Shown here one piece after another: positions 4,173 to 53,418 of a stretch of 64,000 nt of DNA. The translations under genes and the position numbers were made by a program. The stretch's first letter is position 1, and each line of letters starts with the position of its first letter. The DNA is from a virus (Duplodnaviria; Heunggongvirae; Uroviricota; Caudoviricetes), in the IMG/VR virus record IMGVR_UViG_3300037067_004861; one strand, given 5' to 3'. The notes beneath the pieces are model-generated. The model was not told the DNA's origin, searched no databases, and worked only from the letters and a program-made list of their open reading frames with translations.

Positions 4173-4220
4173 GGATTATGACAACATAGGTTTGATATTT
4201 TACACACCCTTTAGCGGGGT

Positions 4221-4350
4221 AGGGATTGTAACAATAATAGGGATTGTAACAACAATAGGGATTGTAACAATAATAGGGATTGTAACAATAATAATGATTT
4301 TAAGGATTGTAGTGATTTTAAGGATTATTACGGTTATTACGGTTGATTTT
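4221..4350. repeat. 18-bp tandem repeats (agggattgtaacaataat, x4) followed by shorter gattttaaggatt and ttattacgg repeats
   Basis: Direct reading. Confidence 0.85.
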
Positions 4351-4476: not shown

Positions 4477-4718
4477 TGAAAATGTAAAGAAAATGATGAT
4501 TTTGAAAATTGATTTTCAAATCATAATGTCATAATAATGAGAACACTATTGGACAATGGTTAATCTCTTATGACGCTAGAACGCCGTCTCACGCCCTCCA
4601 ACGCCCCAATGGCTCCCAAGACCAAAATGGGAAATGGGCTCCCTAGGCACGCAGCTAGGGCCCTTAAAAGGGAATCCGTAGCCGTGGCCACGGAAGCCGC
4701 GAGGGGTAGCCGGGAAGT

Positions 4719-4812
4719 CCATAAATAATAATACTTTTTCCTATTCCCCTATAGGGCATTTTTATTAGAAAGAGCCCTATAGGGGAATAGGAAAAAGTAT
4801 TATTATTTATGG
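4719..4812. repeat. Perfect inverted repeat with 38-bp arms (ccataaataataatactttttcctattcccctatagggc) and a 17-nt spacer; cruciform or hairpin-forming
   Basis: Right arm 4774..4812 is the exact reverse complement of left arm 4719..4756. Confidence 0.9.
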
Positions 4813-4945
4813 AGAGGCTAAGTCTAGGCTACGGCTAGACTTACGGAATTATACTGTTTTTATGTCCACCTTCACATAACTATTGTCCAATAGTGAACTC
4901 ATCATTATTTGGCCTTTTAGAGCTTTTTAGAGCTTTTAACGAAAA

Positions 4946-4974
4946 GCAGGAATCCAGGATTCCTGGATTCCTGC
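4946..4974. promoter_or_regulatory. Palindrome gcaGGAATCCaGGATTCCtggattcctgc; strongest copy of the GGAATCC-N-GGATTCC motif
   Basis: Direct reading. Confidence 0.45.
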
Positions 4975-4994
4975 AACAATTAAACTAAGAATTA

Positions 4995-5354
4995 TTAAAC
5001 AATTCTTTTCGTCAGCTCAGGAAGTGCAACCTCAGTAATAAGATTATTCTCAACTAGGAGGTCAACAATCTCAATGGCTACGCCGTCAACAAACGCTTCT
5101 TCATTAAGAACCACTTCTTTTAAAAGCATGGGGTTGCGATCCAAGACTCCGTGAATCAACTCGTGGATCAAGGATTCAAGGATGCACCGATTCGGTTGCT
5201 CAGTACATACTCTAATGGTCCTGCTATTATAATCAATATAACCTAAGTACTTCTTGTCTTCACAGTTAATAACCGTGGGTACTTCAGCACTCTGAGCCAC
5301 ATATTCAATAGTGTAATCCACACCCCTAATAGTAATAGCAGTAGGTAGTTTCAT
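4995..5354 (-). CDS. Putative zinc metallopeptidase (HExxH: LIHELIHGV), ImmA/IrrE- or SprT-like
   Basis: HELIH motif in a 119-aa protein. Confidence 0.4.
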   Translation of the reverse strand: MKLPTAITIRGVDYTIEYVAQSAEVPTVINCEDKKYLGYIDYNSRTIRVCTEQPNRCILESLIHELIHGVLDRNPMLLKEVVLNEEAFVDGVAIEIVDLLVENNLITEVALPELTKRIV

Positions 5355-5877: not shown

Positions 5878-5952
5878 TCTTAAACCTTAAACCTTAAACC
5901 TTAAACCTTAAACCTTAAACCTTAAACCTTAAACCTTAAACCTTAAACCTTA
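5878..5952. repeat. Heptamer tandem repeat (aacctta), about 10 copies; overlaps the 3' end and stop of ORF 5936..6106
   Basis: Direct reading; a shorter copy sits at 6106..6125. Confidence 0.9.
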
Positions 5953-6106
5953 AAACTGTCTCGGCGTTCCAATAGTTTCCGCTATAACCTTCGTAATAAC
6001 GATACAGAATCGTTACAAACTGCAGCCACCACCATTTACCATCTAAATACAGTGGTAAGAACAGGAACTTATCCCTGATTTTAATATCACCGTCTTTGTA
6101 TTTCAT
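5936..6106 (-). CDS. Small hypothetical protein (56 aa), paralog of 5696..5872
   Basis: Manual translation MKYKDGDIKIRDKFLFLPLYLDGKWWWLQF... Confidence 0.4.
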   Translation of the reverse strand: MKYKDGDIKIRDKFLFLPLYLDGKWWWLQFVTILYRYYEGYSGNYWNAETVLRFKV

Positions 6107-7159: not shown

Positions 7160-7162
7160 TTT

Positions 7163-7232
7163 CTTGCCTTCTTAATCTTGCCTTCTTAATCTTGCCTTCT
7201 TAATCTTGCCTTCTTAATCTTGCCTTCTTAAT
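7163..7232. repeat. 14-bp tandem repeat (cttgccttcttaat) x5; overlaps the 3' end of ORF 7200..7511
   Basis: Direct reading. Confidence 0.9.
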
Positions 7233-7511
7233 CTGATCTTTGTTTTCAAAATCCTGATAATAATAGATTTTACCGTTTTCGTCCTTAATATAACCGGCTT
7301 CCGGAAATTCAAATACTCTTCCATCTTCTAGAGCCCCGGCGTCTTGGTACAATTCCGCAAGAAGTTTACTAATCTTCTTAATCTTTGATTTTAACATCTT
7401 GTCGTCAGCTAGAATATGATCTACGATCTCTCTTTCAAAGATATCCATAACAAGATAAGCACGGTCGGTCATCTCGTGATAGTGCCATCTATCTAGTGGT
7501 GTTTTATTCAT
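7200..7511 (-). CDS. Hypothetical protein; C-terminus is encoded by the tandem repeat
   Basis: ORF track. Confidence 0.4.
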   Translation of the reverse strand: MNKTPLDRWHYHEMTDRAYLVMDIFEREIVDHILADDKMLKSKIKKISKLLAELYQDAGALEDGRVFEFPEAGYIKDENGKIYYYQDFENKDQIKKARLRRQD

Positions 7512-26707: not shown

Positions 26708-27394
26708 TTATACCTCTGCCAGAACTTCAAATTCCTTGCAACGCCACTTATCCCCGGCCCTATGGATATCTGTCTTCTTCGTCCTAACCTTGATAATGGG
26801 GCCACGAGAATTGGTGTTTGACTCTTGAAATTTCAAGACCATGGCAACCGTAGGGTAAAGATAGAGGCCAGGATGGCATTCGGTCTTGCAGGTGGAGAAA
26901 TATGGAGCCTTTACTTTATCTCCAACACTATAGCTACCACTATTCAAACGCCTTTTAGAGCGATAACCGATAATATAATCACCATCCTCCTTGAATCCTC
27001 TGTAATCTGTGTTTAATGTGTTCCTGGGATCAAGAGCAGTATGGTTGATGTTGGCCTCAGTGAGATTAATATCATAGAGGTCCGTTTCTTGCAGATAGGC
27101 TCCTTGGAGATTGGCTCCATGGAGGTTAGCTTCCCATAGATATGCGTATAGGAGATTAGTACCTTGGAGATTGGCCCCTGGGAACTGGGACTGCATTAGT
27201 ACAGCTCCTTGGAGATTGGCTCCTTGAAGATTGGCTCCTTGGAGATTGGCTCTTCGGAGATCGGCTTCTCGAAGATTGGCGCCTCGGAGATCGGCTTCCC
27301 GGAGATCGGCCTCATAGAGATTAGCTCTTTCTCCACCTTCTCTATCTTGTAGCCAAAGACTATGCTTTTCCAGGGCGACTTTAATATCAATCAT
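26708..27394 (-). CDS. Pentapeptide-repeat protein with a conserved unrecognised C-terminal domain (paralog 1 of 3)
   Basis: A(D/N)LxxA(N/D)L repeats; C-terminal DYRGFKEDGDYIIGYRSKRRL...TECHPGLYLYPT...KWRCKEFEVLAE is shared with 27408..28148 and 28599..29399. Confidence 0.7.
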   Translation of the reverse strand: MIDIKVALEKHSLWLQDREGGERANLYEADLREADLRGANLREADLRRANLQGANLQGANLQGAVLMQSQFPGANLQGTNLLYAYLWEANLHGANLQGAYLQETDLYDINLTEANINHTALDPRNTLNTDYRGFKEDGDYIIGYRSKRRLNSGSYSVGDKVKAPYFSTCKTECHPGLYLYPTVAMVLKFQESNTNSRGPIIKVRTKKTDIHRAGDKWRCKEFEVLAEV

Positions 27395-27407
27395 GGCTTA
27401 ACCCTTA

Positions 27408-28148
27408 TTATTCATACTCTGCCAGAACTTCAAACTCCTTGCAACGCCACTTCTTACCAGCCTTATGAATATCTGTCTTCTTCGTTCTTACCACAATTAT
27501 AGGGCCCCAAGAATTGGGATTTCCTCTTTGAAAGTTCAATACCATCTCTATTGTAGGGTAGAGATAAAGGCCCGGATGGCATTCTGTCGTACAGGTGGAG
27601 AAGTAAGGGGCTTTTACTTTCTCTCCGATACTGTAGTGACCACTATTCAAACGCCTTTTCGTCCGGTATCCGATAATATAATCACCATCCTCCTTGAAGC
27701 CTTTATATTCCATATTCAAGGTATTTCTTGGGTCCAGAACAGTACCGGTGATCCTGGCCCTGGTGAGATTAGTTCCGTAGAGGTCAGTTTCCTGTAAACA
27801 GGCTCCTTGGAGATTGGCTTCAGAGAGGTCAGCTCCCGATAGATGTGCGTATAGGAGATTTGCCCATTGAAGGTTGTTTTCTCGAAGGTTGGCCTGCATT
27901 AAGTAGGCTCCGCTGAGTGAGGCTCCTTTGAAATTAGCTACTTGAAGATCGGCCCCATGGAATGTAGCATAGGAAAGATTAGCATATTGTAGGTTGGCAC
28001 CACGTAGGTCGGCTTTGGTGAGATCAGCATTTTGAAGGTCAGCTTCGCGGAGATCGGCTCCTAGGAAATTTGCTCGCTCTCCGTCCGGATCACCGTGAAG
28101 CCACTTCCTATGGGAATCTAGAATGCCTTTAATAGTGATATCAATCAT
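27408..28148 (-). CDS. Pentapeptide-repeat protein with the same C-terminal domain (paralog 2 of 3)
   Basis: See 26708..27394. Confidence 0.7.
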   Translation of the reverse strand: MIDITIKGILDSHRKWLHGDPDGERANFLGADLREADLQNADLTKADLRGANLQYANLSYATFHGADLQVANFKGASLSGAYLMQANLRENNLQWANLLYAHLSGADLSEANLQGACLQETDLYGTNLTRARITGTVLDPRNTLNMEYKGFKEDGDYIIGYRTKRRLNSGHYSIGEKVKAPYFSTCTTECHPGLYLYPTIEMVLNFQRGNPNSWGPIIVVRTKKTDIHKAGKKWRCKEFEVLAEYE

Positions 28149-28151
28149 AAT

Positions 28152-28493
28152 TTAACCTTTAAAATCAATTACACCGTACTCAGAGTTGGTGATAGTGTAA
28201 TAGCAACGTCGGACGCCAACCATTTGCATAAATGATCGGCAGGTCCGACAGGGTGTCGCATTAGCGTAGTCACCATTCTTTAGGACACGGACGACATAAA
28301 CAATAGAACCCTTATCCAACTTCCTGCACAATCGGGCTTCGGCATGAGCCTGCGGTTCCGGATATCGGCAAGGCAGATTAGTTGATTTTACTATCGTTCC
28401 ATCGGCCCTAAGTCCCACGGCTCCGATACAATATCTCCTGATATCATTCTTTTTGATAGCAATACGTTCGGCTAATCGGAACATGCGTTTCAT
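28152..28493 (-). CDS. Cytidine/deoxycytidylate deaminase-fold zinc enzyme (CDA, dCMP-deaminase or TadA-like; 113 aa)
   Basis: Zinc-binding motifs HAE and PCxxC (HAEARL...ATPCRTCRSF). Confidence 0.6.
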   Translation of the reverse strand: MKRMFRLAERIAIKKNDIRRYCIGAVGLRADGTIVKSTNLPCRYPEPQAHAEARLCRKLDKGSIVYVVRVLKNGDYANATPCRTCRSFMQMVGVRRCYYTITNSEYGVIDFKG

Positions 28494-28518
28494 GGTTGTA
28501 TATCTTTAATAGTAAAAG

Positions 28519-28591
28519 TAGGACGGGAAGGAATCGAACCTTCGGCCACGACTTTATAAGAATCGCACTCTAACCACTGAGTTACCGTCCC
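28519..28591 (-). tRNA. tRNA-Ile (anticodon UAU)
   Basis: Hand fold: acceptor GGGACGG/CCGTCCT (G1-U72), D-stem ACTC/GAGT, anticodon arm CGATT-CTTATAA-AGTCG, T-arm GAAGG-TTCGATT-CCTTC. Confidence 0.75.
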
Positions 28592-28598
28592 ATTCCTT

Positions 28599-29399
28599 TT
28601 AGTATTCTGTCTCGGACAGGACTTCAAACTCCTTGCAACGCCACTTGTCTCCCGCCCTATGAATATCCGTCTTCTTGGCTTTCACTTTAATGATAGGACC
28701 TGCTAGGGAGGTACTGTGGGTATACATAAAGTTTAATACCATTTGAACCGTGGGGTAGAGGTAAAGACCTGGATGGCATGGAGAAAAGCTAATAGAGAAG
28801 TAAGGTGACGTAACTTTCTCCCCGACTGTGTATTCCCCATCGTTCATAAGACGCCTTTTCGTCCTGTATCCGATAATATAATCACCGTCCTCCTCAAATC
28901 CTTTGTAGTCTCTATTAGGCGTATTACTTGGATTGAGACAAGTGCGGATGAGATCGGCTCCTTCTAGATCAGCCCCATAGAGGGCAGTCTCAGAGAGAGC
29001 AGCCCAACGGAGATCGGCTCTTTGGAGATGGGCATTTTGAAGGTCAGCTTCTCGGAGATCGGCTCCTTGGAGATTGGCTCCTTGGAGATCGGCTCCTTGG
29101 AGATTGGCGTAACATAGTTTTGCATGTTGTAGATTCGCTTTTTGGAGACAGGCATATTTAAGATTGGCTTCTCGGAGATCGGCTTCTTGTAGATTGGCTC
29201 CTTGGAGATTAGCGTGACATAGGGTGTTCCCTCTTAAACTAGCATAAGAGAGATTGACTCCTGGAAGATCGGACCCATTTAGAATGACTCCTTGGAAATT
29301 TGCTCTTTCTCCACCCTCTATATTCTTGAGCCAAAGACTGTGCTTTTCCACGGTGGTTTTAATATCAATCATTGTATTTCCTAAATTAGAGTTATCCAT
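28599..29399 (-). CDS. Pentapeptide-repeat protein with the same C-terminal domain (paralog 3 of 3)
   Basis: See 26708..27394. Confidence 0.7.
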   Translation of the reverse strand: MDNSNLGNTMIDIKTTVEKHSLWLKNIEGGERANFQGVILNGSDLPGVNLSYASLRGNTLCHANLQGANLQEADLREANLKYACLQKANLQHAKLCYANLQGADLQGANLQGADLREADLQNAHLQRADLRWAALSETALYGADLEGADLIRTCLNPSNTPNRDYKGFEEDGDYIIGYRTKRRLMNDGEYTVGEKVTSPYFSISFSPCHPGLYLYPTVQMVLNFMYTHSTSLAGPIIKVKAKKTDIHRAGDKWRCKEFEVLSETEY

Positions 29400-29587
29400 A
29401 TATAGGGTTCCCCACCATTAAACTCACCGTGCATGATTCGTGATATTTGAGCCCCTTTTCTGGCTTTTGAAATAAGGTAATCACCCACTCTTGGGGCAGT
29501 TACAAACTTGGAGGGCCACTCCTCTTCATTCAATCGGTCATCATTAGAATGATAATAATACGTTCTCATTTCAGTTCTCCGGCTCAC
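29381..29587 (-). CDS. Hypothetical protein
   Basis: ORF track. Confidence 0.35.
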   Translation of the reverse strand: MSRRTEMRTYYYHSNDDRLNEEEWPSKFVTAPRVGDYLISKARKGAQISRIMHGEFNGGEPYIWITLI

Positions 29588-29614
29588 AAAATAAAATCAA
29601 TGATAATAAAATCA

Positions 29615-29652
29615 ATCATCGCATGGATCAAATATATGACCCATGCGATGAT
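29615..29652. promoter_or_regulatory. 12-bp-arm inverted repeat ATCATCGCATGG-13 nt-CCATGCGATGAT in AT-rich intergenic DNA; GATATTATTATCA motif follows directly
   Basis: Direct reading. Confidence 0.4.
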
Positions 29653-29666
29653 ATTATTATCAATTT

Positions 29667-29820
29667 CTAGTTTTCCGTAAAATCAATATCATCCTCCAAG
29701 TGTTGGATTTTGCGGCACAACGCAATAGCCTCGACCTTCTCTCTGCTTGTCAACTTATCCTTCTCCATTATCTCTGCTAGCCTAGTTTCATACGCTTTCA
29801 ATTCGGCAATTCGATCCATG
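29667..29820 (-). CDS. Small coiled-coil protein (about 50 aa), minus strand (MDRIAELKAYETRLAEIMEKDKL...)
   Basis: Manual translation; preferred over the plus-strand ORF 29710..29898 because it matches the local gene orientation. Confidence 0.3.
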
Positions 29821-29974
29821 GCAGTAACCTCTTGTGGGTGGCCGGGGCTATACCACTATATTACCATGGATTCGCGGAATCTAGGGAGAAAACTATGAAG
29901 ATTATGGATTATAGGATTTTGATATTGATATTACTATAATCGGAATAATGATATTATTATCAAAAATAATATTA

Positions 29975-30439
29975 TCAAACTAAAACTAAATTGAACCTCC
30001 AGAATATTTGAATATTGATTTTACAATCATCTAGAGGGTAGATTCGTCCCTGTGGGTCATATATCTTCCCCTCTTCATGATTCCAGGCTACCGCGTGCCA
30101 ATAGGTCCGAGCCTTACCGCATAGGATACCATCACAACACTTCAAATGATTATGAAATCTATTCTCATCGAATTGGAGAACAAATTCATCATCTCCATAG
30201 ACAGTCTGGACCGGCCTTGGCTCTATGGGTGTTACCGCGAACCCACGAGCCAAAGCTATATCTATAATCTCTTGAGTATGGAATCCTTTTCTCTGGGCCG
30301 GTCCTTTGAGATCAGGATGAATAATCTCACTACCGTCGTGTCCTACTGTCGCTATTAACTCTTCTACCGCCACACCCATGACCATAGCAGCAGCGGTAAT
30401 ACTGCAAGACCAACTATTTGGTTGTTTTAGTAGAAGCAT
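29975..30439 (-). CDS. Papain-like cysteine peptidase (C39-like fold)
   Basis: NSWSCSITAAAMV (Cys box) and WHAVAWNHEEGKIYDPQG (His box). Confidence 0.45.
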   Translation of the reverse strand: MLLLKQPNSWSCSITAAAMVMGVAVEELIATVGHDGSEIIHPDLKGPAQRKGFHTQEIIDIALARGFAVTPIEPRPVQTVYGDDEFVLQFDENRFHNHLKCCDGILCGKARTYWHAVAWNHEEGKIYDPQGRIYPLDDCKINIQIFWRFNLVLV

Positions 30440-38718: not shown

Positions 38719-39543
38719 CTAAACCTCTACATCCTCGAAAGGCAACACATAAGGGATACCCTTATCCCGTGCGGCCCGTTTGATATCAAAATATAAGTCA
38801 GCACTACTGATATTACCGTTCGCCCAGGCCAGGGCTCGTGTAACTAAACTATAACCAAGCGTATCCCCGATATGCTTTATCATATCCTGTACTGTCGATA
38901 CGGATTGACGTTTCTTGACGAAGGGGCGTTGGGCTGGCTTCTTCCCAACATCCAAACCCTTTTGCCCATTAAGAAGTGAAGTCTTGATTTTCCTAACAGC
39001 CGCGTACTGATCGTCTGCACTGTCGAGAGTAGCTAATTGCCTAATCTGATATTGATTCAGAACACCAGCCGCGGCCTCCTCTTGAATCTCTTTCGGTAGT
39101 TTGAGTAAGTCTAAACGCACCTGTACCCAAGACCGTGACTTACCCAATTCTTTAGAAATTTGATCTTGAATTAGACCTAATCCCCTTAGTTTCTCTACCG
39201 CATGAGCCTCCTGCAGAATATTCAGTTCTTCGCGTTGCAGGTTCTCCGTGAGGTTGAGTAATCGGGCTTGTAGTTCGGATAACCCCGTCCGAATCATCGC
39301 TGGAATCTCAGTCTTCTTCAAGACGCGGCAGGCAGCGAACCGTCTGTGACCAGCAATGATTCTATAATCATAATTGGGTCCACTAGTTAGCGGTTGGACA
39401 GTAATAGGGAACTGTAGACCATTACGGTCTATGTCCTTGGCTAATTCGGAGACACTAAGTAAGGAGATAGTACCCCTGCAATTGAAATCACTATCACTAA
39501 AAATACGATTGATAGGTATGTTTTTTACTTGATAATCATCCAT
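38719..39543 (-). CDS. ParB-like nuclease-domain/HTH protein
   Basis: YRIIAGHRRFAA (ParB box) followed by an HTH region; adjacent to the DNA methyltransferase. Confidence 0.6.
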   Translation of the reverse strand: MDDYQVKNIPINRIFSDSDFNCRGTISLLSVSELAKDIDRNGLQFPITVQPLTSGPNYDYRIIAGHRRFAACRVLKKTEIPAMIRTGLSELQARLLNLTENLQREELNILQEAHAVEKLRGLGLIQDQISKELGKSRSWVQVRLDLLKLPKEIQEEAAAGVLNQYQIRQLATLDSADDQYAAVRKIKTSLLNGQKGLDVGKKPAQRPFVKKRQSVSTVQDMIKHIGDTLGYSLVTRALAWANGNISSADLYFDIKRAARDKGIPYVLPFEDVEV

Positions 39544-39773: not shown

Positions 39774-40535
39774 TCATGCTCGGCTGATAGGAAGCCCGTG
39801 CTCCTCGGAGATGTTCCGGCAATAGGTGCTGTCCAGGTCGATCAGCGTGCATGACCGGCCGATTCGCTCGCAGACACGCAACGTCGTGCCGGTGCCGGCG
39901 AACGGGTCAATGACGGTGTCGCCCATCTTGGTGCTGAACAGCAAGCACCTTTCGACCAACCCCTCGTTAAGCTGTGTCGGGCACCATGGCCGGCGCTGCT
40001 TCGAGTTGCCGGTGACTCTCGGGAAGTCGAACACATCGCCCGGAACACGGCCTCGTGGATCAGCCCTCTTGTCTCCGTTCTCCTGCCGCCAGGAGGGCAC
40101 GCGAATGGCGTCGGGGTAGAACGCGGCATCGGGCCACCACAGACGAAGCAACGGGCGGTGGTTGTTCCCGAAGTCGTGATGGTTGTGCTGGCCGAACGTG
40201 AAGGTCTGGATGCAATTTTTGGCCGATAGTCGCGGGTTGGCTTTCAGTAGCCTCCAGACGATCATGCCCATGGCGAAACTCCACTTGGAGTTGTACGACA
40301 TCCACACCACGGGGGCCTTGCCAACGAACGCTTGAAGAAGCGTGTCGAGAAGATCAACATACTCATCGTCTGGCAGGTTGTCGTTGTGTTCGCTGTAGCC
40401 GAGCTTGATGTTGTCCGGCGGATCGGCGAAAATGCAATTCGCGTTCGGGATATGCTCAAGGACGTGAAGGCAATCGCCGTGGTAGAGATAGTGCATGATT
40501 AGTTTCCTAATTATCGAAACCCAGTAAGAGAGCAC
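39774..40535 (-). CDS. DNA methyltransferase (N6-adenine or N4-cytosine, beta class); conspicuously GC-rich gene
   Basis: Motif IV IFADPPDN precedes motif I IDPFAGTGTT; GC far above the surrounding genes, so the track shows many overlapping spurious ORFs. Confidence 0.7.
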   Translation of the reverse strand: MLSYWVSIIRKLIMHYLYHGDCLHVLEHIPNANCIFADPPDNIKLGYSEHNDNLPDDEYVDLLDTLLQAFVGKAPVVWMSYNSKWSFAMGMIVWRLLKANPRLSAKNCIQTFTFGQHNHHDFGNNHRPLLRLWWPDAAFYPDAIRVPSWRQENGDKRADPRGRVPGDVFDFPRVTGNSKQRRPWCPTQLNEGLVERCLLFSTKMGDTVIDPFAGTGTTLRVCERIGRSCTLIDLDSTYCRNISEEHGLPISRA

Positions 40536-42082: not shown

Positions 42083-44389
42083 TTATTCTTTCTTTAGTTT
42101 CGACTTCAAATCCCCAAGAGTCAGAGATTGTAAATCCCTTTTCTGTTTAAGATTAGTTAGAACCAGTTCGTCCGTGGGGAGATGAATAAGATCAATAATA
42201 GTGGCTCCTCTATTCGTGTCCATTCCGATACGGTGGATTCGGTCTTCCGATTGGATACGTGATTCGCCATTAAAATCATTACTGTAATAGATAATAACGG
42301 GGGAGGCCGTTAGGGTTATACCCATCCCCGCCGCACCAGGTTGACCGATGAAAGCAATCCGTGGATACTTTTCCAGTTCGTCTTGGAAGTTGCTAAGCGG
42401 ATCACCGGGGATATTACTATGCCATCCACGCCCGTCAACCCTGATCCAGGCCCAACCATTGGCCTCACAAATCGCGACAATCCTGTCAACGCTGCCAGTG
42501 AAACCCCCATAGATGACAACTCGGCCAATCTCCATGTATTCATCGAGTAATTCGCACAATGCCTCTTCCTTTGGAGTCTCAATGAATTGAGCCGTGCGTT
42601 CGTGGACTTTCCGCGTCCCCTTACCGCCACAGCCATCACAATCCACATATTCGAGTTGATTTTGTAGATCAGTCTCGTTTGGCCGGGAATCCTCTGGCAG
42701 ATTGGCATTAAGCATCGGGTTCTTAATGGTGCCCTTGCCATTGCAAACAGGGCAGGTTTCCGTACCGACTTCTTTCTCAACATATTGGAAGCCATCGCTT
42801 AGTTCCCTCAATAATGTTAATCCCGCCACAACAGTATGGGATGTTTCAATGATAGTATTAGCAATATCAATGATAGACTGAGAGGGCGGGAGATTGATAA
42901 TTTTGTAGATTTTGTCAGGAAGGTCAATAAAATCCTTCTTGAACTGAACAAGAACCAACCCCTTCATACGCTCATGTAATTTGTAAACCTCGTTCTCCGA
43001 GGGCGTATATGGGTGGTCACAATCAGTGTGGTCATCATAGTAACCACCGCAGATGGAACACTTCTTTTCGTCATCAAGCCAAGAAACAATAGTTGGGTAA
43101 GCCTGCCCGAAAGCAGAGTCATTCTTTTTAATGATAGCTAAACGCTGCCTAAACTTATGGTAGTCGCCCTCTTTCAGGAAACCAGGACAAGCTATCTTGC
43201 ATTGTTGGAACCAGTCTGCCGGACTCTTTGGGGCAGGGGAACCAGTTAATAAGAGAATAAAAGCGGACTCTCCCCAGTAGTTTCTGACAATCTCTGCTAG
43301 TTCATAAGCAGCCACGGATCGTTGAGCCGTTGGGTTCTTTGTCCTAGATGATTCATCGAAGACAATACCCATTGGGATATCACAATCCCTAATGTGATTC
43401 TTACTGACTTTAACTAACTCATTGTAGGTTAATAGCCGTGGATTGATTTTACAATCCCAAACTTTGAACTCCCTGCTTACCCCTCTTAAAGCAGACCGTG
43501 GAGCAGCATACCACCAGTTAGGATTGCCAGACCGCTCCATTGCCTCGATCGTTGCCAAGGTTTTACCGCAGTTATGTACAACGATACCATTAGCAAGGAA
43601 ACTATGATATGGTTCTTCACAAACAATATCATAAACAGAGGAGTAACCAACTGGTTTCACAGATACAACGAAATCATAGTATAGTGTATGTTGGCTACTA
43701 TCATAGACATTCATACTTGTTCTTACTACATCACCAGGAACTAAATCCTTTGCTTCCTTGTATTCATCATAGTTAAAACTTATTTCATGGTCCGGTGTGA
43801 CACGCAGAACATATCCACGCTCGGTGGTTATTTCTACTACCTCCTTGAAACCCTTAAAAATTACGTCTTTAACATCAGCCTTGGCTCGTTTGCCTTGGCT
43901 GTCAAAAGTCCTAATTCTATATCTATTAGTATGGGCTTTCTGATGGAATAAGAAATTAAATTTCTCCAAAGTCCACTTAGCTACGTTAGTTTTATTTCCA
44001 CCAAAAATCTCTACTATCGCGGCTCCATCCACACACCCCATCTCACCAGCATAAACTACTTGCTTATAAGTAAGCATGAAGTCAGCGGCATAACGCTGAT
44101 TGATATACAACGGTCGGACATAATCATGTTGAATGATAGGCTTATCATATTTACCATAAACATCCACACCTTGAAGATATTTTAATCTAAAAGCATTATG
44201 ACTGGAGTTATTGATTCTCCATATCTTTCTTGGTGGGTCGTCATAACCACACCAGTGGGCACCATCCATAGATTTTATTTCAGCTATAAGTCCCTTATTA
44301 AAGGAGAATGTCACATAGATATAGTTGTCAACGTAATCTAATGACACTGGAAACTTATATTTACCAACCCTTAATTTAGTATTTATCAT
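42083..44389 (-). CDS. SNF2-family helicase/ATPase interrupted by a mini-intein in the Walker A motif
   Basis: N-extein ...AGEMG joins C-extein CGKTLATIE to give GEMGCGKT; DEAD-like FDES; LLLTGSPAPKS (SNF2 motif III); HRIGM (motif VI). Confidence 0.7.
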   Translation of the reverse strand: MINTKLRVGKYKFPVSLDYVDNYIYVTFSFNKGLIAEIKSMDGAHWCGYDDPPRKIWRINNSSHNAFRLKYLQGVDVYGKYDKPIIQHDYVRPLYINQRYAADFMLTYKQVVYAGEMGCVDGAAIVEIFGGNKTNVAKWTLEKFNFLFHQKAHTNRYRIRTFDSQGKRAKADVKDVIFKGFKEVVEITTERGYVLRVTPDHEISFNYDEYKEAKDLVPGDVVRTSMNVYDSSQHTLYYDFVVSVKPVGYSSVYDIVCEEPYHSFLANGIVVHNCGKTLATIEAMERSGNPNWWYAAPRSALRGVSREFKVWDCKINPRLLTYNELVKVSKNHIRDCDIPMGIVFDESSRTKNPTAQRSVAAYELAEIVRNYWGESAFILLLTGSPAPKSPADWFQQCKIACPGFLKEGDYHKFRQRLAIIKKNDSAFGQAYPTIVSWLDDEKKCSICGGYYDDHTDCDHPYTPSENEVYKLHERMKGLVLVQFKKDFIDLPDKIYKIINLPPSQSIIDIANTIIETSHTVVAGLTLLRELSDGFQYVEKEVGTETCPVCNGKGTIKNPMLNANLPEDSRPNETDLQNQLEYVDCDGCGGKGTRKVHERTAQFIETPKEEALCELLDEYMEIGRVVIYGGFTGSVDRIVAICEANGWAWIRVDGRGWHSNIPGDPLSNFQDELEKYPRIAFIGQPGAAGMGITLTASPVIIYYSNDFNGESRIQSEDRIHRIGMDTNRGATIIDLIHLPTDELVLTNLKQKRDLQSLTLGDLKSKLKKE
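43571..44035 (-). mobile_element. Mini-intein (about 155 aa, no endonuclease domain evident) within the SNF2 helicase P-loop
   Basis: Starts CVDGAAIVEIFGG (block A), TPDH (block B), ends FLANGIVVHN followed by Cys+1. Confidence 0.65.
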
Positions 44390-45773: not shown

Positions 45774-45821
45774 AAACTTGAAATACTTTCCAAAGTGTGC
45801 CATTACTGGCATGGAAAGTTA

Positions 45822-46769
45822 TTAACCCTCAAGTAGCTTCGCGGCTTCCGCAGCAGCCTCATCAGCACGCTTCTTGGCACGCTCAATTTGACGACGCTTC
45901 TTGGCATCCTCAACCTGGCGACGCTTCTCATTGTACTCAGCTTCCTGCTGGGCCAAGCTAATGGGGTCAAGATTAATGGCGAAAGCAACACCTAACCTAA
46001 ATCCATCAACGGCGGTGGTCGCACCGACCTGGTCGCACATCGCACGACCGACTTCACCCTGCTCCAACTCCGTCTTTAGCTCCGCCATCTTGCGGGCATG
46101 TGGGACTGGGGTAAACGAAGGAGCCGATGCCTCACGGCCTTCCTTGACTGCCTGTCGTAACTCAGCGATCCGAGCCTGCACCGTAGCCACGAACTCAGCC
46201 GGGGCCGTCGTCATCGCGGAATCAACAAAGTTAAGTTGCTCTTCCGGCGGGAGCTTAGCAAGAATGACGGCATTGCTAACTGTGATTTTACCATCATCCA
46301 CAAGAGGCTGGACCCGCTCATCCAACTTGAGCAGACCCAAACGCTGGCTGACCCATGACGAACTCTTGGCCAGATGTTGGGCCATCTCCGAAACCGTCAT
46401 GGTCGGATTGCTGGCGAAAATCCGTTGAAGTTGCTTCGTGTACTCAACGGGGCGAGTCTCAATCGTATGGATGTTAGCCATAATCTGAGCTTCGAGGACT
46501 TCGGAATCGTCTAGAGAGACGATGTTTACCGGAATCTCGTCGAGGCCAAGATCAAGAACAGCCGAGAATCGGTGAAGGCCATCAACTAACTCATAATACG
46601 AGATAGTGTCGCCATCAACCTCTTCCGTCTTGCTTCGCACGCTGATAGGATTCAACAGGCCACTACGGGCGATTGAATCACGAAGACCAACATAACCCTC
46701 CGACTCACTGTTCACGGCACGCAACGCAACTGGATTTTTCCGAATCTCGCTGACCTTAATAACACTCAT
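45822..46769 (-). CDS. ParB/Spo0J-like protein (nuclease/CTPase N-domain, HTH, basic C-terminus)
   Basis: YELVDGLHRFSA (ParB box); C-terminal KKRRQIERAKKRADE. Confidence 0.6.
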   Translation of the reverse strand: MSVIKVSEIRKNPVALRAVNSESEGYVGLRDSIARSGLLNPISVRSKTEEVDGDTISYYELVDGLHRFSAVLDLGLDEIPVNIVSLDDSEVLEAQIMANIHTIETRPVEYTKQLQRIFASNPTMTVSEMAQHLAKSSSWVSQRLGLLKLDERVQPLVDDGKITVSNAVILAKLPPEEQLNFVDSAMTTAPAEFVATVQARIAELRQAVKEGREASAPSFTPVPHARKMAELKTELEQGEVGRAMCDQVGATTAVDGFRLGVAFAINLDPISLAQQEAEYNEKRRQVEDAKKRRQIERAKKRADEAAAEAAKLLEG

Positions 46770-46846
46770 CTTAGAAACCTCTTTTAAAGAGAAAAGAAAA
46801 TGATTTTAGTCTCACTTACTAAAATCATACAATACACGGAGTTGAT

Positions 46847-47272
46847 AATAATATCAAAGATCGAAATGTCGAAATATCAATATCAAATGGCAATAATCAA
46901 TATCAAAATAAAACCTACATAAAAGCCCGGTAGCAATACATATAGGACATATACGCCTATACTGCGGCGTCAAAACCCATAAAATAAGAAAACCTTTTCC
47001 CCTTTCCCTACAGGGCCTTCTCCTCTTCAATTAGCCCCTGGGGCAGAATAGGAATAGTTTTCTTATTTTATTCGACCATACAACCGTTAGATACCCTATA
47101 TGTATACGTACCCCCAACTTACGAAAGGTTTGGGCATCCGGACGCCACAACACAACAATATAGATGAATAAGACTTCCATAAATGATATTGATTATTTCA
47201 ATTTGATTTTGATATTTTGGTTTTTCGTATTTTGATATTATTATCATTCCACCTATTAGTGATATTATTATC
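46847..47272. promoter_or_regulatory. Origin-like divergent intergenic region: AATATCAA/ATCAATATCA iterons (46847..46908), the same iterons inverted (47184..47240), central nested inverted repeats, 2x GATATTATTATCAT before the primase ATG
   Basis: Direct reading; lies between the parB-like gene and the primase-helicase gene. Confidence 0.55.
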
Positions 47273-50017
47273 ATGCCAACTAAAAGTAAAGCCATTTCCG
47301 CCTTCCTAAAATCACATACGCATAGTGATTTAGCAGCATTATACAACCTTGGGATGGAAGTCCAAGTTAATGTTGCGCAGGATTCGGGTGATCCCATAGA
47401 GGGAGAATCCGGCTATACAGGGCGGATGTGGAGAGGATATAGTGATGGCATCCAAACTTGGAAACCATTTCGTATACCATGGAATGCCAAAGTATCACCT
47501 GAGTATTCTGAGACTACTATCAAAAATGGAGTCGAGAGGCCAAAACAACTTACTTGGGATTTAGCCCAACATGCCGAAGGTATAGGAATGACCGGGTGGT
47601 GTTGGACTGAGCGCGTATCAAAGTGGGTTGCTTTCGATTTTGATAATATTGCCGCACACCCCTCTTCTGGTATTTCCGCTGCAGAATTACAGCAAATTCA
47701 AGAAGCCACCTGTAAGATACCGTGGATTACTATTAGGAAATCCACGAGTGGACAGGGATTGCATCTCTATGTGTTCCTAGATAATGTACCTACAGAAAAT
47801 CATACCGAACATGCAGCCTTAGCTAGAGCTATTCTAGGTAAGATGACAGCTACCACTGGCTTTGCTTTTGATAGTAAAGTCGATATCTGTGGTGGTAATA
47901 TGTGGGTATGGCACAGGAAGATGGCAGGCACGGATGGCCTTACCCCGATCAAGGTAGGCAGAACGCTGATTGATATTCCTGTCAATTGGAAAGACCATCT
48001 CCCTGTAATCCAAGGGAAACGACGTAAAAATCTCCCCCATTATGTGGAAGGACAAGACCTAGATCAGTTTGAACAACTCACCGGACAACGGCCGCGAGTG
48101 AAATTGGATGAAGGTCATAAGAAATTATTATCATATTTAGATGAAATTAAGGCACAGTGGTGGTATGATAATGATAATCATTTATTAGTCTGCCATACTT
48201 TCGATCTCAAACGTGCCCATGGCGAGTTAAAATTACGTGGTATTTTTGAGACTTTAGCTACAGGACATAGCGGTGCGGCTCAAGGAGCAGACCACAATTG
48301 TTTTTGTGCCCCCTTAGAACATCCAGAAGGAGCCTGGGTAGTGCGACGCTTCCATCCCGGGGAACAGGAACACCAAACATGGTCTCAGGATGTTTCTGGG
48401 TGGACTAAATGTTATTTTAACAGGGAACCTACGTTAGATACTGCCGCCCGTGCCTTCAAAGGAATCGAAGGTGAGCGGGGAGAATTCTTCTTCAATGACG
48501 CAAAAACCGCATCTACTGCTCTGCAAACCGTAGGAACCACTCTTAAACTACCGTCGTGGGCTGAGAATAGGGATACTATTATCAAACCACACAAGGACGG
48601 TAAGAGATTGATAGTCAAAATCAAAAGAGAAAGTACGGATAGATACGACGATATTGACGGTTGGAGAGAAGATAAGGGGTTTTGGACTAAGATTTTTGAC
48701 GCTAGATTAGCACAATCGGAGTCCTCGGAACCCCAGAATTATGATGGATTCATTAGACATATTGTGTCATGTGAGAGAAAAGATGCAGGTTGGTCTATTC
48801 GTTCTGAAAACCAATGGCATGATGAACCACTCACTCACATTAAATTAGCTCTTAAATCAGTTGGATTATCCGACCCCGATGTTAATAAGACATTAGGGAA
48901 CTGTATTTTGAATGGTTGGATTCTTGTTAATAAACCATTCCAACCAGAGTATCCCGGTAATCGTGAATGGAATAGAAACGCTGCCCAACTACGTTACACT
49001 CCGCAGCAAGAAGAACCATTTAAACACCCAACATGGGACCGTGTATTAAACCATGCGGGTTCTGGTTTTGATATTGCTATCAAACATGATGGTTGGTGTC
49101 AAGCCAATGGTATAAGTAATGGTGGTGATTATTTAAGATTGTGGGTTGCGTCATTAGTACAAGAACCCGCAGTACGGCTTCCTTATATTTTCTTATATAG
49201 TCCTGAACAAAAGACAGGTAAATCAACACTACACGAAGCCCTCCAACTTCTTGTAACCCGTGAAGGTTATATAAAGGTCAATCATGCCTTGTTGAGTGAG
49301 GGTGGTTTCAATGGTGAAATGGTTAGTGCCGTTTTATGTGCATTAGATGAGTGCGATTTACGCAAGAATAAACAAGCTAAGAATAGAATGAAGGATTGGG
49401 TTACGTCGCGTGATATCACAATCCATGCTAAAAATGGTACACCATATCTTATTCAAAACGTAACGCATTTTATCCATACTGGTAATGACCCTGCGGAATG
49501 TGATATTACCACTGGTGATACGCGAGTAAGTTTCAGTAGGGTTCCTATACTCAAAGCAGAAGAATTAATTCCAAGGGACACACTTTTCTCATTACTAGAA
49601 CGTGAAGCATCGGCCTTTATTGCTACACTATTGAAGGTAGAACTACCCCCATTAGTGGATAGGTTAGGTGTCCCAGTCATTGAGACATTGGAAAAGCGTA
49701 TTAGTGCCCAGTCTAATCAAGATGAGTTCCATACTTGGTTGGATGAATGTACCTTCCGAGTACCTGGGGAAAGCATTCGTTATAGTGACTTTTACGCGAA
49801 ATTCGTGAACTGGCTCGATCCATCAGATGCAATGAACTGGTCTAAGATTCGTGTTGGTAAGAATCTACCTACTGATTGCCCTAAAGGTCGGTTATCAGCG
49901 GACGGTAGTCAATACCATATTGCCAATATCTCTTTCACTGAACCAGTTCCACAACAACTAGCACAACCAAAATATGTCCTCCGTGGTGAAGTATTGGTAT
50001 TGGAGGATAAACTATGA
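47273..50017 (+). CDS. Bifunctional primase-polymerase / SF3 (D5/P4-alpha-like) helicase
   Basis: Prim-pol motif TSGQGLHLYVFL; Walker A SPEQKTGKST in the C-terminal half. Confidence 0.7.
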   Translation: MPTKSKAISAFLKSHTHSDLAALYNLGMEVQVNVAQDSGDPIEGESGYTGRMWRGYSDGIQTWKPFRIPWNAKVSPEYSETTIKNGVERPKQLTWDLAQHAEGIGMTGWCWTERVSKWVAFDFDNIAAHPSSGISAAELQQIQEATCKIPWITIRKSTSGQGLHLYVFLDNVPTENHTEHAALARAILGKMTATTGFAFDSKVDICGGNMWVWHRKMAGTDGLTPIKVGRTLIDIPVNWKDHLPVIQGKRRKNLPHYVEGQDLDQFEQLTGQRPRVKLDEGHKKLLSYLDEIKAQWWYDNDNHLLVCHTFDLKRAHGELKLRGIFETLATGHSGAAQGADHNCFCAPLEHPEGAWVVRRFHPGEQEHQTWSQDVSGWTKCYFNREPTLDTAARAFKGIEGERGEFFFNDAKTASTALQTVGTTLKLPSWAENRDTIIKPHKDGKRLIVKIKRESTDRYDDIDGWREDKGFWTKIFDARLAQSESSEPQNYDGFIRHIVSCERKDAGWSIRSENQWHDEPLTHIKLALKSVGLSDPDVNKTLGNCILNGWILVNKPFQPEYPGNREWNRNAAQLRYTPQQEEPFKHPTWDRVLNHAGSGFDIAIKHDGWCQANGISNGGDYLRLWVASLVQEPAVRLPYIFLYSPEQKTGKSTLHEALQLLVTREGYIKVNHALLSEGGFNGEMVSAVLCALDECDLRKNKQAKNRMKDWVTSRDITIHAKNGTPYLIQNVTHFIHTGNDPAECDITTGDTRVSFSRVPILKAEELIPRDTLFSLLEREASAFIATLLKVELPPLVDRLGVPVIETLEKRISAQSNQDEFHTWLDECTFRVPGESIRYSDFYAKFVNWLDPSDAMNWSKIRVGKNLPTDCPKGRLSADGSQYHIANISFTEPVPQQLAQPKYVLRGEVLVLEDKL

Positions 50018-50223
50018 ACCTGCAAAAGATTATAGAATCATTGAATCAATCCCAGCGGGCTCAATTAATGACGGCTTTCAACCATCATTTTACACAGCGT
50101 GTTGTCTTTCCAGATAACACATTTATTGGAGTTAATATCGTGCCCGGTCCTGATATTTTAATCACCGAGCAAACAGGGTGTTGGTCCATTGGTAAAATTC
50201 TGAGGAGAAAGCCGTGTCAATAA
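50014..50223 (+). CDS. Hypothetical protein
   Basis: ORF track; 4-nt overlap with the primase gene. Confidence 0.35.
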   Translation: MNLQKIIESLNQSQRAQLMTAFNHHFTQRVVFPDNTFIGVNIVPGPDILITEQTGCWSIGKILRRKPCQ

Positions 50224-50980: not shown

Positions 50981-51537
50981 ACAGAAACCGATTAGCCTAC
51001 ACCCGTGGCTACCTATGTGGGGCCATGGATCGAGTCCAAGACGGGGGTATTGGATGGCGAAAAGATATTCAACGAGTCTTCAAGAACTATAAAATCCAAT
51101 GGATGGACCCGTCCAATAAGCCAATAGATATTGGTATTGAAGACTTAGAGAATAGAGCCTACCGGCGTAAATGCAAGGAAGCCGGTAGATATGATATGGT
51201 TCAAACTGATATGAAAATCATTCGTTGCGTTGATCTCCGGATGGTTGATATCAGTGACTTCATCGTTGTCAATCTCGATACATCTGTACACGCTTGCGGG
51301 ACTTATGAAGAGTTGACTTGGGCTAATCGTGGAAAGAAACCAATCATAATTAGAGTAGAGCAGGGTAAGTCCGATTGTCCAGATTGGATTCTAGGAACCA
51401 TACCACATGAGATGATCTTCTCGACATGGGCCGAGGTATACTCTTATCTCAAGCATGTTGCCAGAGACGATTATTTCGAGACTTTCCGGCGGTGGTGTTT
51501 CTTTGACTTCCATGGAGAAAAAGAATGCAGTACCTAG
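50977..51537 (+). CDS. Nucleoside 2-deoxyribosyltransferase / DNPH1(Rcl)-like N-glycosidase-fold protein
   Basis: GYLCGAMD ... VVNLDTSVHACGTYEELTWANRGKKPII matches the NDT-fold motifs. Confidence 0.45.
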   Translation: MNRNRLAYTRGYLCGAMDRVQDGGIGWRKDIQRVFKNYKIQWMDPSNKPIDIGIEDLENRAYRRKCKEAGRYDMVQTDMKIIRCVDLRMVDISDFIVVNLDTSVHACGTYEELTWANRGKKPIIIRVEQGKSDCPDWILGTIPHEMIFSTWAEVYSYLKHVARDDYFETFRRWCFFDFHGEKECST

Positions 51538-52208
51538 GAGGCAAGTCTGCTATAGGTCGAGAAATAGCAGAGATAATAAAATCATATGCCTTCATAGATC
51601 AAACGATTTATGAACCCTTCTGTGGGGCTGCTAATGTTACGCAATATCTAGCCCCGTATAAAGTCGAGGCATCAGATATCCATAAGTCATTGATACTGTG
51701 CCTGCAAGCAGTGCAACAGGGGTGGCTACCGCCAACCTCTGTGTCAGAACAAGAATACAAAAGACTCCAAAATCTCGTTAAAGAAGGTGAGGAGTCCGCC
51801 CTTCTAGGATTCGTTGGATTCGCGTGCTCTTGGGGCGGTAAATGGTTTGACGGATATGCTCGCGGGCATAATAGGAACTATGCTGAGGGGTGTCAACACT
51901 CTCTTCTTAAACGTATAAAGAAATGTACAACCACGACTTTCACACATAAGAACTACCGTAATCTCAAGCCCAGTAACTCAGTAGTTTATTGCGACCCGCC
52001 ATATCGAGGCACCACTGGTTATGGTGGTGTATGGTGCCCAGTCACATTCTGGGAGACAATGAGGCAATGGTCGAGAACTAATAAGGTGCTTATTTCAGAG
52101 TATACGGCACCTGATGATTTTAAAATCATAGCCTCATTCTCACACGATTCCATGGATGGTTTAGCCTCTAAAACAGTTACCGAACATTTATTTAAGTATG
52201 GTGGATAA
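51525..52208 (+). CDS. dam: DNA adenine methyltransferase (Dam/D12 class)
   Basis: YLGGKS...IYEPFCGAANV (motif I) and VYCDPPY (DPPY motif IV). Confidence 0.7.
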   Translation: MQYLGGKSAIGREIAEIIKSYAFIDQTIYEPFCGAANVTQYLAPYKVEASDIHKSLILCLQAVQQGWLPPTSVSEQEYKRLQNLVKEGEESALLGFVGFACSWGGKWFDGYARGHNRNYAEGCQHSLLKRIKKCTTTTFTHKNYRNLKPSNSVVYCDPPYRGTTGYGGVWCPVTFWETMRQWSRTNKVLISEYTAPDDFKIIASFSHDSMDGLASKTVTEHLFKYGG

Positions 52209-53138: not shown

Positions 53139-53154
53139 CATAATCTAAAACACA

Positions 53155-53197
53155 AAAACCGTACATCAGAAATTCTGATGTACGGTCTTTTTATTTA
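53155..53197. terminator. Bidirectional rho-independent terminator (accgtacatcagaa-a-ttctgatgtacggt hairpin with T-runs on both strands)
   Basis: Direct reading; separates the converging plus-strand operon and the minus-strand tail module. Confidence 0.7.
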
Positions 53198-53204
53198 AAA
53201 ACTT

Positions 53205-53381
53205 TTAATTAAAAGAGCGCAGTGTCTTAGCCAAAGCAATTTGTCGCTTGGTTGCGGTACTTACTCCTTTGGGTGGATTAGCCACATAAGCCGATACTGA
53301 CATACCAGCAGCCTTGGCCTTACGTGTTAATGCTCCGGGATGTTTGATAGCACCCTTAATCCAGTTCTTTTTCTTTGCCAT
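53205..53381 (-). CDS. Small basic protein (58 aa) MAKKKNWIKGAIKHPGALTRKAKAAGMS...
   Basis: Manual translation; below the ORF-track cutoff. Confidence 0.3.
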   Translation of the reverse strand: MAKKKNWIKGAIKHPGALTRKAKAAGMSVSAYVANPPKGVSTATKRQIALAKTLRSFN

Positions 53382-53418
53382 TTATTTTACCCTCTTATTT
53401 TACCTTTACTATTTTAAT

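Follow-up and report, generated by a model that had tools for sequence, protein, structure and literature searches.

Symmetric repeat arrays between divergent parB-like and primase-helicase genes form a candidate replication origin and control hub in a tailed-phage genome

The stretch of DNA analysed here, 64,000 nt from the IMG/VR virus record IMGVR_UViG_3300037067_004861 and hereafter called the window, is a segment of a tailed-phage genome. Within it a spacer of 503 bp (46770-47272) separates two divergent genes, one encoding an orphan ParB/Noc-like protein (ParB#1) and the other a primase-helicase. It would seem that this spacer is double-stranded, protein-binding DNA, a hub from which the replication module is controlled and, most likely, a replication origin as well. 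We put the probability of this reading, which comes from sequence comparison, at about 0.5. An earlier interpretation made from the letters of the DNA without database searches (the sequence-only reading) had seen here the layout of a replication origin or of a centromere-like site. The symmetric arrays, the palindromic core and the replication genes on both sides hold up and are conserved in a family of related phages; a ParABS centromere does not, as no ParA was found. The spacer is more ordered than that reading described, with seven sites of 14 bp placed around a core of nested palindromes. The more unusual result, however, is not the origin-like spacer but the palindromic repeat word of its sites, which is scattered over the whole window.

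Sites and symmetry in the spacer

The seven sites share the half-site TGAT(A/T)T and lie on either side of a 278-bp core of nested palindromes (Table 1). Four tandem sites (L1, L2, R1 and R2) flank the core, and three dyads (L3, R3 and R4) lie nearer to the genes. The pairs L1/R1, L2/R2 and L3/R3 mirror one another about position 47044.5, with their spacings of 20 and 29 bp mirrored too, and the outer arms (46843-46905 and 47184-47246) make an ungapped 63-nt inverted repeat that is 84% complementary. The repeats listed in the sequence-only reading are all present, at the positions it gave. On the parB side AATATCAA starts at 46850, 46873, 46879 and 46899 and ATCAATATCA at 46876 and 46896, and on the primase side the reverse-complement iterons start at 47184 (TGATATTGAT) and at 47209 and 47232 (TTGATATT). 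Between the two arrays the pair AAAATAAGAAAAC / GTTTTCTTATTTT proved to be contained in an inverted repeat of 15 nt without mismatch (46979-46993 / 47057-47071), the pair beginning catatagga belongs to an imperfect one (46929-46953 / 47088-47112, 76% complementary), and the palindrome GCCCCTGGGGC is found at 47034-47044. Two copies of GATATTATTATCAT had been placed at the primase start; they occupy 47234-47247 and 47261-47274, and the first two bases of the ATG at 47273 fall in the second copy. The description of both flanking genes was likewise correct: ParB_N and HTH_ParB domains were found in the product of one and a DUF5906 helicase domain in that of the other.

This repeat pattern is far beyond chance. 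Compared with its own reverse complement, the spacer gave z = 14.6 and 11.8 against shuffles in two computations, and its fold energy had z = -11.3 on the plus strand and -8.0 on the minus strand. The site arrays are 20-30% G+C, and no discrete A+T-rich element of the 13-mer kind was identified in the spacer. A perfect stem at the parB end presumably lies in the leader of the parB-like mRNA. At the other end, a 27-nt direct repeat (47233-47286) duplicates the start region of the primase gene, with ATT in the upstream copy where the downstream copy has ATG.

Homologues of ParB#1 (46-62% identity) led to 30 IMG/VR loci, 38 metagenome loci and one species-genome contig (L numbers below denote individual loci). 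In at least 22 of the IMG/VR loci a parB-like gene and a primase-helicase gene for a protein of about 900 aa diverge across a spacer of 380-780 bp, and a primase-helicase homologue diverges from parB wherever the locus sequence is long enough. The spacers share a common plan and not a common sequence, with half-site repeats at both ends and long inverted arms inside. Among 18 non-redundant family spacers, 16 have the central pyrimidine tract on the primase-sense strand and 12 have two-fold symmetry over the whole spacer (z = 4-20), the sequences of the arms varying from phage to phage. Local hairpins within each arm are weak in the window; some relatives, L012 and L015 among them, have strong ones. 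In one relative, L003, about 530 extra bases (~4821-5350 in locus coordinates) separate the spacer from the main part of the primase gene and contain a Cys-rich HNH-like open reading frame (ORF), possibly a homing endonuclease insertion.

What kind of element this is can be judged from where the arms agree. Inside the sites the 63-nt arms agree at 41 of 42 positions, and between the sites at 12 of 21; this concentration of agreement in the 14-mers is the signature of selection for binding sites. The arm mismatches in the 18 family spacers (400 of transversion type, 80 G·T on the plus strand and 111 G·T on the minus strand) occur in the 2:1 ratio expected at random, with neither a difference between strands nor an excess of G·U. 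Together these observations point to protein-binding DNA and not to RNA, and the spacer very probably consists of arrays of protein-binding sites acting as DNA. Its very low fold energy could suggest instead that a structured RNA is transcribed from it, as a leader or as a long non-coding hairpin. We consider this most improbable, as both strands fold, the identity between the arms sits in the 14-mer sites and not along the stems, and the mismatches compatible with G·U pairing are neither in excess nor biased to one strand. Rfam gave no match to the spacer when 46000-48000 was searched in permissive mode (E up to 1), and in gathering mode it found only four tRNAs in the whole window. The nested inverted repeats might also be those of a selfish foldback insertion, similar to a miniature inverted-repeat transposable element, and the central ~95 nt do have one weak paralogue at 4718-4813. 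There is very little to be said for this, however: distant relatives have a symmetric spacer at the same position with differing arm sequences, blastn found no other copy in the window, and the spacer is not taken for a mobile foldback element because the flanks of 17 relatives hold no extra copies of the inner part.

Table 1. Features of the spacer, its flanking genes and related regions of the window. Positions are those of the 64,000-nt window.
Feature	Position	Strand	Remarks
L3, dyad (TGAT-N6-ATCA class)	46843-46856	-	Exact 14-mer TGATATTATTATCA; mirror of R3
L2, tandem half-site iteron	46872-46885	-	TGATATTGATATTT; differs by one base from its mirror partner R2
L1, tandem half-site iteron	46892-46905	-	TGATATTGATTATT; same as its mirror partner R1
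R1, tandem half-site iteron	47184-47197	+	TGATATTGATTATT
R2, tandem half-site iteron	47204-47217	+	TGATTTTGATATTT
R3, dyad 14-mer	47233-47246	+	TGATATTATTATCA
R4, dyad 14-mer, extra, without mirror partner	47260-47273	+	TGATATTATTATCA; ends on the A of the primase ATG
Entire mirror-symmetric element	46843-47246	.	Outer arms and nested inner inverted repeats
Central pyrimidine-rich tract, primase-sense strand	46990-47044	+	76% C+T in best 50-nt window; ends in GCCCCTGGGGC
Perfect stem of 11 bp, loop of 7 nt	46800-46828	-	Directly upstream of the AAAGAGG ribosome-binding site of the parB-like gene
parB-like gene (ParB#1), orphan ParB/Noc-like protein	45822-46769	-	ParB_N and HTH_ParB
Primase-helicase gene, 914 aa	47273-50017	+	N-terminal archaeo-eukaryotic-type primase and superfamily-3 (D5/NrS-1-like) helicase
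ParB#2, second, more canonical orphan ParB	38719-39543	-	GHRRFAA and ENLQRE boxes; weak KorB match
Second site cluster	29540-29985	.	Dyads 29601, 29649 and 29949; tandem sites 29678(-) and 29920(+)
Nested palindrome	4480-4994		Outer arms 4531-4562 / 4877-4908; hairpin of 45-nt arms 4718-4813; z = 19

A dyad spread over the genome and its candidate binder

The exact 14-mer TGATATTATTATCA has five copies in the window, three of them in the spacer and the others at 29649 and 29949. With up to two mismatches allowed there are 69 matches at 54 positions where 1.5 would be expected, and 42 of the 54 positions are within genes. The underlying pattern, TGAT-N6-ATCA, is found 43 times against 2.6 expected (z = 25) and is the top outlier of all combinations of a 4-mer inverted repeat and a spacer; its minimal form, GAT-N6-ATC, is found 115 times against 25.7 expected. 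Twelve of the 115 are in a 15-bp tandem repeat at 66-303 (TGATTGTAGTATCCC, 15.9 copies), each unit of which contains GAT-N6-ATC. Palindromic sites cluster upstream of parB and about 40 more are dispersed over the genome, where TGAT-N6-ATCA is evenly distributed and mostly intragenic (for example at 1417, 6076, 16514, 37946 and 58204). The dyad is enriched in two reading frames (57 against 13.2 expected in frame 0 and 22 against 3.5 in frame 2), which rules out a codon artefact and shows that it is selected at the level of the DNA. A general promoter element was also rejected, as 15 of the 43 sites fall within -120 to +10 of predicted starts where 10.4 would be expected (p = 0.11). The Fur box (7-1-7) and the FNR box (TTGAT-N4-ATCAA) were set aside because their spacing differs.

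Relatives have their own versions of the dyad, at densities even above that of the window. L006 and L030 carry TGAT-N6-ATCA (17-18 per 11-13 kb), L005, L007, L008 and L018 carry GATG-N4-CATC (11-25 per 8-13 kb, with up to 25 found against 0.9 expected) and L021-L025 carry GATT-N5-AATC (15-19 per 9-13 kb). The lineage-specific forms GATT-N4/5-AATC and GATG-N4-CATC, like the rest, all reduce to GAT-N6/7-ATC, with a fourth base that depends on the lineage, GATT or GATA in some and GATG in others. It was also seen that GATC is absent from the whole of the L006 and L030 loci (0 against ~41 expected), the same loci being rich in TGAT-N6-ATCA.

The tandem form behaves differently from the dyad. It consists of two direct half-sites, TGATAT-TGAT in the window and GATT-T-GATT in most relatives, and the exact words GATTTGATT/AATCAAATC were counted 33 times in the spacers of 17 loci and not once in their flanks. 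Exact copies of TGATATTGATWWTW are confined, within the window, to L1, L2, R1 and the two positions 29678 and 29920.

A protein that might bind these sites is encoded next to them. ParB#1 matches the Pfam families ParB_N (8.6e-11) and HTH_ParB (1.7e-11) and, amongst structures in the PDB, Spo0J (1vz0) best at 3.4e-16, with the Noc and KorB structures matched as well. It scores 79.7 bits with the NCBIfam model parB_part (TIGR00180), which is over the cutoff, and 80.8 bits with the Noc model, far under the cutoff of 315. Of the CTP-binding boxes (GxxRxxA and ENLxR), the first is kept in the alignment as GLHRFSA, and MANIH takes the place of the ENLQR box. The recognition helix of ParB#1 is KSSSWVSQRL. 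Across the family it reads KSxxW(I/V)x(Q/E)RL in lineages with GATT or GATA dyads, and G replaces the Q/E in the GATG lineage; the corresponding helix of ParB#2, SRGWVQVR, is unchanged between motif classes. ParB#1 is favoured as the binder because its helix changes with the motif class and that of ParB#2 does not. We would regard ParB#1 as a reasonable candidate for the protein that binds the sites, with a chance somewhat short of even.

ParB#2 adjoins an N6/N4 DNA methyltransferase gene (39774-40535). Local tblastn of the fetched loci showed it to be conserved in relatives, 4-5.5 kb downstream of ParB#1, though as a query against IMG/VR it gave no match. A ParA partner was found for neither ParB. 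No ORF longer than 80 aa in the window contains the Walker-A motif of ParA, KGGxGK[ST], and the ParA-binding motif [LFI]G[KR]G[LFI] is likewise absent from all of these ORFs, both ParBs included; the neighbouring ORFs gave no Pfam match. The window has a pair of orphan ParBs together with 43 dispersed TGAT-N6-ATCA sites.

Origin, operators or both

The three gene-proximal sites overlap elements that resemble promoters. The best promoter-like site toward the parB-like gene, TCGACA-16-TATTAT, runs on the minus strand from 46872 to 46845, and its -10 overlaps L3. On the other side R3 reads directly as a TG-extended -10 (TGATATTAT) toward the primase gene, and a promoter scan returned TTATCA-16-TATTAT with a preceding TG at 47241-47268, which puts an extended -10 in R4. 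Transcription starts are predicted near 46840 on the minus strand and near 47248 on the plus strand. The primase start codon itself is secure because the N-terminus, MPTK(S/T)EAI, is conserved among relatives. In at least eight related lineages, representing all three motif classes, the lineage-specific dyad abuts or overlaps this start, and that the position is kept despite the change in sequence argues that the dyads are operators of the primase gene. Since they overlap -10-like elements and the primase ATG, L3, R3 and R4 would be better read as operators than as origin iterons. Such a division, with direct repeats placed at the origin and inverted ones over the promoter as an operator, is that of iteron plasmids.

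The core and the tandem sites, on the other hand, may best be read as an origin. Clustered short repeats in a non-coding stretch, as in iteron origins, are present as seven sites of which four are tandem, and a second such cluster lies at 29.5-30.0 kb. The layout kept across the family, the confinement of the tandem form to the spacers of relatives, the central pyrimidine tract, the low G+C of the arrays and a genuine primase-helicase next door are counted in favour of this reading. The strongest indirect argument that the arrays would serve initiation comes from DnaA boxes in relatives. In 47 non-redundant loci the exact box TTATCCACA was found 42 times in the 27 kb made up by the 700 nt upstream of each parB and three times in the remaining 294 kb, a density 152-fold over that of the flanks, with 2-5 perfect boxes per spacer in 14 of the 47. 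These 14 form a sub-lineage (L004, L005, L007, L008, L018, L020 and eight metagenome loci). Where the position of the boxes was looked at (L007, L008 and L018) they are on the primase side, where they replace the specific repeat arrays of the other phages and leave only one or two dyads. Taken on its own, the proposal that the spacer region is a replication origin would appear to have about an even chance.

We would picture the combined hub as follows. A dimeric, phage-encoded helix-turn-helix protein, for which ParB#1 is the best candidate, would bind the dyads and repress both divergent genes in a manner resembling that of KorB on the RK2 plasmid. The DNA would open at the core and the inner tandem sites, and the primase-helicase would be loaded there in both directions. 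In the sub-lineage with DnaA boxes on the primase side, host DnaA would join in opening or loading.

Several observations weigh against this picture. The spacer of the window has no DnaA box, even at one mismatch, and clusters of such boxes can also have a regulatory role alone; the primase ATG of L007 has one directly next to it. Cumulative GC skew had been proposed as a check of the origin, and the sign change found at the spacer follows from the turn in gene orientation and is undone with it at 53.3 kb; the skew at four-fold sites has no replication component, with no difference of the expected sign between co-oriented and head-on genes, and runs, if anything, in the wrong direction for an origin here. 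Phage genomes often lack replication-associated skew, so its absence is weak evidence. The true origin, or additional ones, could lie in the repeat-rich non-coding regions 4480-4994 and 29540-29985. Whole-spacer symmetry is missing in 6 of the 18 relatives, and the overlap of the three gene-proximal sites with -10-like elements and the primase ATG also counts on this side. The sequence-only reading had taken repeats that turn out to be common low-complexity motifs across the genome as grounds against an origin. For the dyad form this is borne out in part, as it is common genome-wide by the counts given above, yet it is a specific, selected motif and not low complexity. The dyad is only weakly enriched genome-wide in L017, L026 and L029 though these keep both ParB genes. 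Finally, the association of the ParB#1 helix with the motif class goes back to essentially a single evolutionary event, and the loci were all found through ParB#1.

Much of the same evidence could be accommodated if the spacer were only a transcription control region, with operators of a KorB-like global regulator governing early expression of the parB-like and primase genes, and with the origin at 4480-4994, at 29540-29985 or at an intragenic position. The dyads over -10-like elements and the primase ATG, the occurrence of the same dyad genome-wide and a skew without an origin signal would all fit, as would the even stronger nested palindrome at 4480-4994, which carries GACTTACGG. This is a possibility to be taken seriously, if on balance an unlikely one: it leaves unexplained the confinement of the tandem half-site form to the spacer, the pile-up of perfect DnaA boxes here and not in the flanks, and some 280 bp of conserved nested palindrome with an oriented pyrimidine tract between two promoters. 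The primase-helicase might, alternatively, itself be the site-specific initiator, like the alpha protein of P4 or the Rep of an iteron plasmid, with no part for ParB. Monomers or hexamers would act on the tandem half-sites at the origin, dimers on the dyads over the promoter and start codon of its own gene would repress that gene, and the 29.5-30.0 kb cluster would act like P4 crr. Such an arrangement would account for there being two forms of site with different distributions, for the dyad kept at the primase start codon across lineages and for a second cluster 17 kb away with both forms of site, and the fusion of a primase to a superfamily-3 helicase is as in P4 alpha. The same fusion is seen in pRN1 ORF904 (PMC4234260). 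We nonetheless think it rather doubtful, since no DNA-binding domain was recognised in the protein, in which about 28 residues follow the helicase domain, the ~40 intragenic dyads genome-wide would have no obvious use, and it is the recognition helix of ParB#1 that tracks the motif class.

A classical partition centromere (parS) that maintains the phage as a plasmid-prophage, for which N15 and P1 provide precedents, would place a ParB-family helix-turn-helix protein beside palindromic sites in its own upstream region, which is what is seen. It is unlikely because no ParA was found: the lack of both the Walker-A and the ParA-binding motif in the ORFs of the 64 kb, about 43 dispersed sites, which are unlike a centromere, and the occurrence of a single relative among 185,579 species genomes, inside a mis-binned metagenome-assembled genome, leave it with a small chance. 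The reading of the spacer as replication control hub, and most likely origin, is the one we retain.

Genome context and comparison with known systems

The gene content of the window includes a tape-measure protein, a family-A DNA polymerase, an SNF2 helicase with an intein, an exonuclease, a deoxynucleoside monophosphate kinase, two DNA methyltransferases and four tRNAs. The SNF2-type helicase gene (42083-44389) is the one split by the intein (Intein_splicing, 1.1e-10), and a methyltransferase gene of the D12 class lies at 51525-52208. The primase-helicase matches DUF5906 (7.7e-14) and the PHROG family 'DNA primase' (4.6e-21), and its C-terminal half matches PDB entry 6k9c, from phage NrS-1, at 6.9e-11 with a family profile. 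D122-x-D124 and S157..G160.G162.H164 are invariant in 16 aligned homologues; the name primase-helicase is justified by these invariant N-terminal primase motifs together with the C-terminal superfamily-3 helicase.

Close relatives were not found. Megablast of 45800-50100 against 50,697 phage records gave no match, tblastn gave distant helicase and ParB matches only, and peptide patterns from the primase-helicase had no match in IMG/VR. The exact ParB protein is also present on Logan assemblies of SRR18595300, in contigs of 45-200 kb; the scans of metagenomes and genomes returned no ParB relative above 62% identity. The relatives come from sediment and hypersaline metagenomes, and a cyanobacterial host, guessed from pentapeptide-repeat proteins and heptamer tandem repeats, was not adopted for this reason.

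Two other regions of the window resemble the spacer, and either might serve as an accessory site or as a further origin. The cluster at 29540-29985, 17 kb from the spacer, consists of inverted arrays around a 50-codon ORF (29667-29819) with a self-complementarity of z = 6.3. In the nested palindrome at 4480-4994 the centre of the 4718-4813 hairpin and that of the focal spacer show a similarity of about 70% (z = 10-13 against shuffles), a similarity that blastn did not report, and GACTTACGG is the most widely shared inner motif of the relatives' spacers. Other repeats were noted as well. Three paralogous genes for pentapeptide-repeat-like proteins (phrog_7713) at 26708-29399 give the DNA a periodicity of 15 and 45 bp, and perfect tandem arrays occupy non-coding positions at 4099-4172 (GGTGTCC, 10.6 copies), 4220-4293 (an 18-mer, 4.1 copies), 5879-5954 (CTTAAAC, 10.9 copies) and 7162-7234 (a 14-mer, 5.2 copies). 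The spacer between convergent gene blocks at 53139-53418 is strongly self-complementary (z = 9.3) and is probably a two-way terminator.

Read as an origin or operator region, the focal spacer would be an element of an ordinary kind in a new phage family, useful for annotating uncultured genomes and for building replicons. Less ordinary is that its 'iterons' represent, locally and in tandem, a dyad that is dense throughout the genome, in a family that always has two orphan ParBs. One could imagine that the lineage-specific GAT-N6/7-ATC dyad, at about one per 0.5-1.5 kb and retained even within genes, is where an orphan ParB/Noc-like protein loads throughout the genome, a 'whole-genome parS' by which phage DNA would be coated, condensed or marked. 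The densest hub of such sites would coincide with the origin and the primase-helicase switch, and the specificities of protein and site would have drifted together (GATT, GATA, GATG; spacer of 6 or 7). We offer this as speculation and think it distinctly unlikely as a whole. If a ParB clamp did load at the dyads, phage-wide coating or marking of DNA would join segregation, nucleoid occlusion and KorB-type silencing as uses of the ParB fold. A search of the literature for a genome-wide ParB site system in phages returned analogues only.

Iteron theta origins such as lambda ori, P1 oriR, F ori2 and that of pSC101 resemble the spacer in their clustered short repeats beside an easily melted stretch, putative in the spacer, and a replication gene, in having direct repeats at the origin with inverted copies over the promoter, and, in some members of the phage family, in their DnaA boxes. 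The spacer differs from them in that two mirror arrays surround a long nested palindrome in place of one direct array, its dyad is scattered genome-wide, the initiator is only a candidate and the spacer of the window has no DnaA box. The SV40 (simian virus 40) core origin and oriL/oriS of herpes simplex virus are also two-fold symmetric, centred on an A+T-rich or strand-asymmetric stretch and placed between divergent genes, a layout that suits head-to-head loading of two helicase rings. These are eukaryotic viruses with unrelated sequences, however, so the analogy is one of layout only. P4, with ori and crr, and SPP1, with oriL and oriR, share with the window two separate clusters of the same repeats, which in P4 and SPP1 bind the initiator. 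P4 also shares the fusion of primase to superfamily-3 helicase, although the C-terminal origin-binding domain of P4 alpha has no recognised counterpart in the window protein; pRN1 ORF904 is a further example of the fusion (PMC4234260).

In oriV of RSF1010, the inverted single-strand initiation sites ssiA and ssiB for the RepB' primase are hairpin repeats on opposite strands from which replication starts bidirectionally (PMC8567376). A primase of archaeo-eukaryotic type, inverted repeats and iterons alongside are the possible points in common; here, unlike in RSF1010, the arms are longer and nested, primase and helicase are fused, and the arm hairpins of the window are weak.

Noc in Bacillus and KorB on RK2 combine, as here, an orphan ParB-family helix-turn-helix protein with many dispersed palindromic sites, some of them at the promoters of replication genes, and ParB#1 and ParB#2 both match Noc and KorB models or structures weakly. 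For KorB, RK2 has 12 OB operators (PMC11790492). The window differs in having at least 43 sites in 64 kb, mostly intragenic and with a variable inner 6 bp of the dyad, and in a ParB#1 that lacks the ENLQR box and has no known KorA-like partner.

The Cluster O mycobacteriophages carry a 17-bp dyad, TGTTCGG-N3-CCGAACA, in more than 30 copies that are mostly away from promoters, and its binder and function are unknown (PMC4351075). Their dyad differs from that of the window in sequence, as do their hosts, and features of the window are the variable inner part, the spacer-specific tandem forms and the hub between replication genes. The two are alike in having a dispersed dyad, and the Cluster O phages also encode a protein with a ParB-like domain and lack parA (PMC4351075). 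Loading of a ParB clamp at the dyads, if true, would thus offer a testable explanation for dispersed dyads in other phages, Cluster O amongst them.

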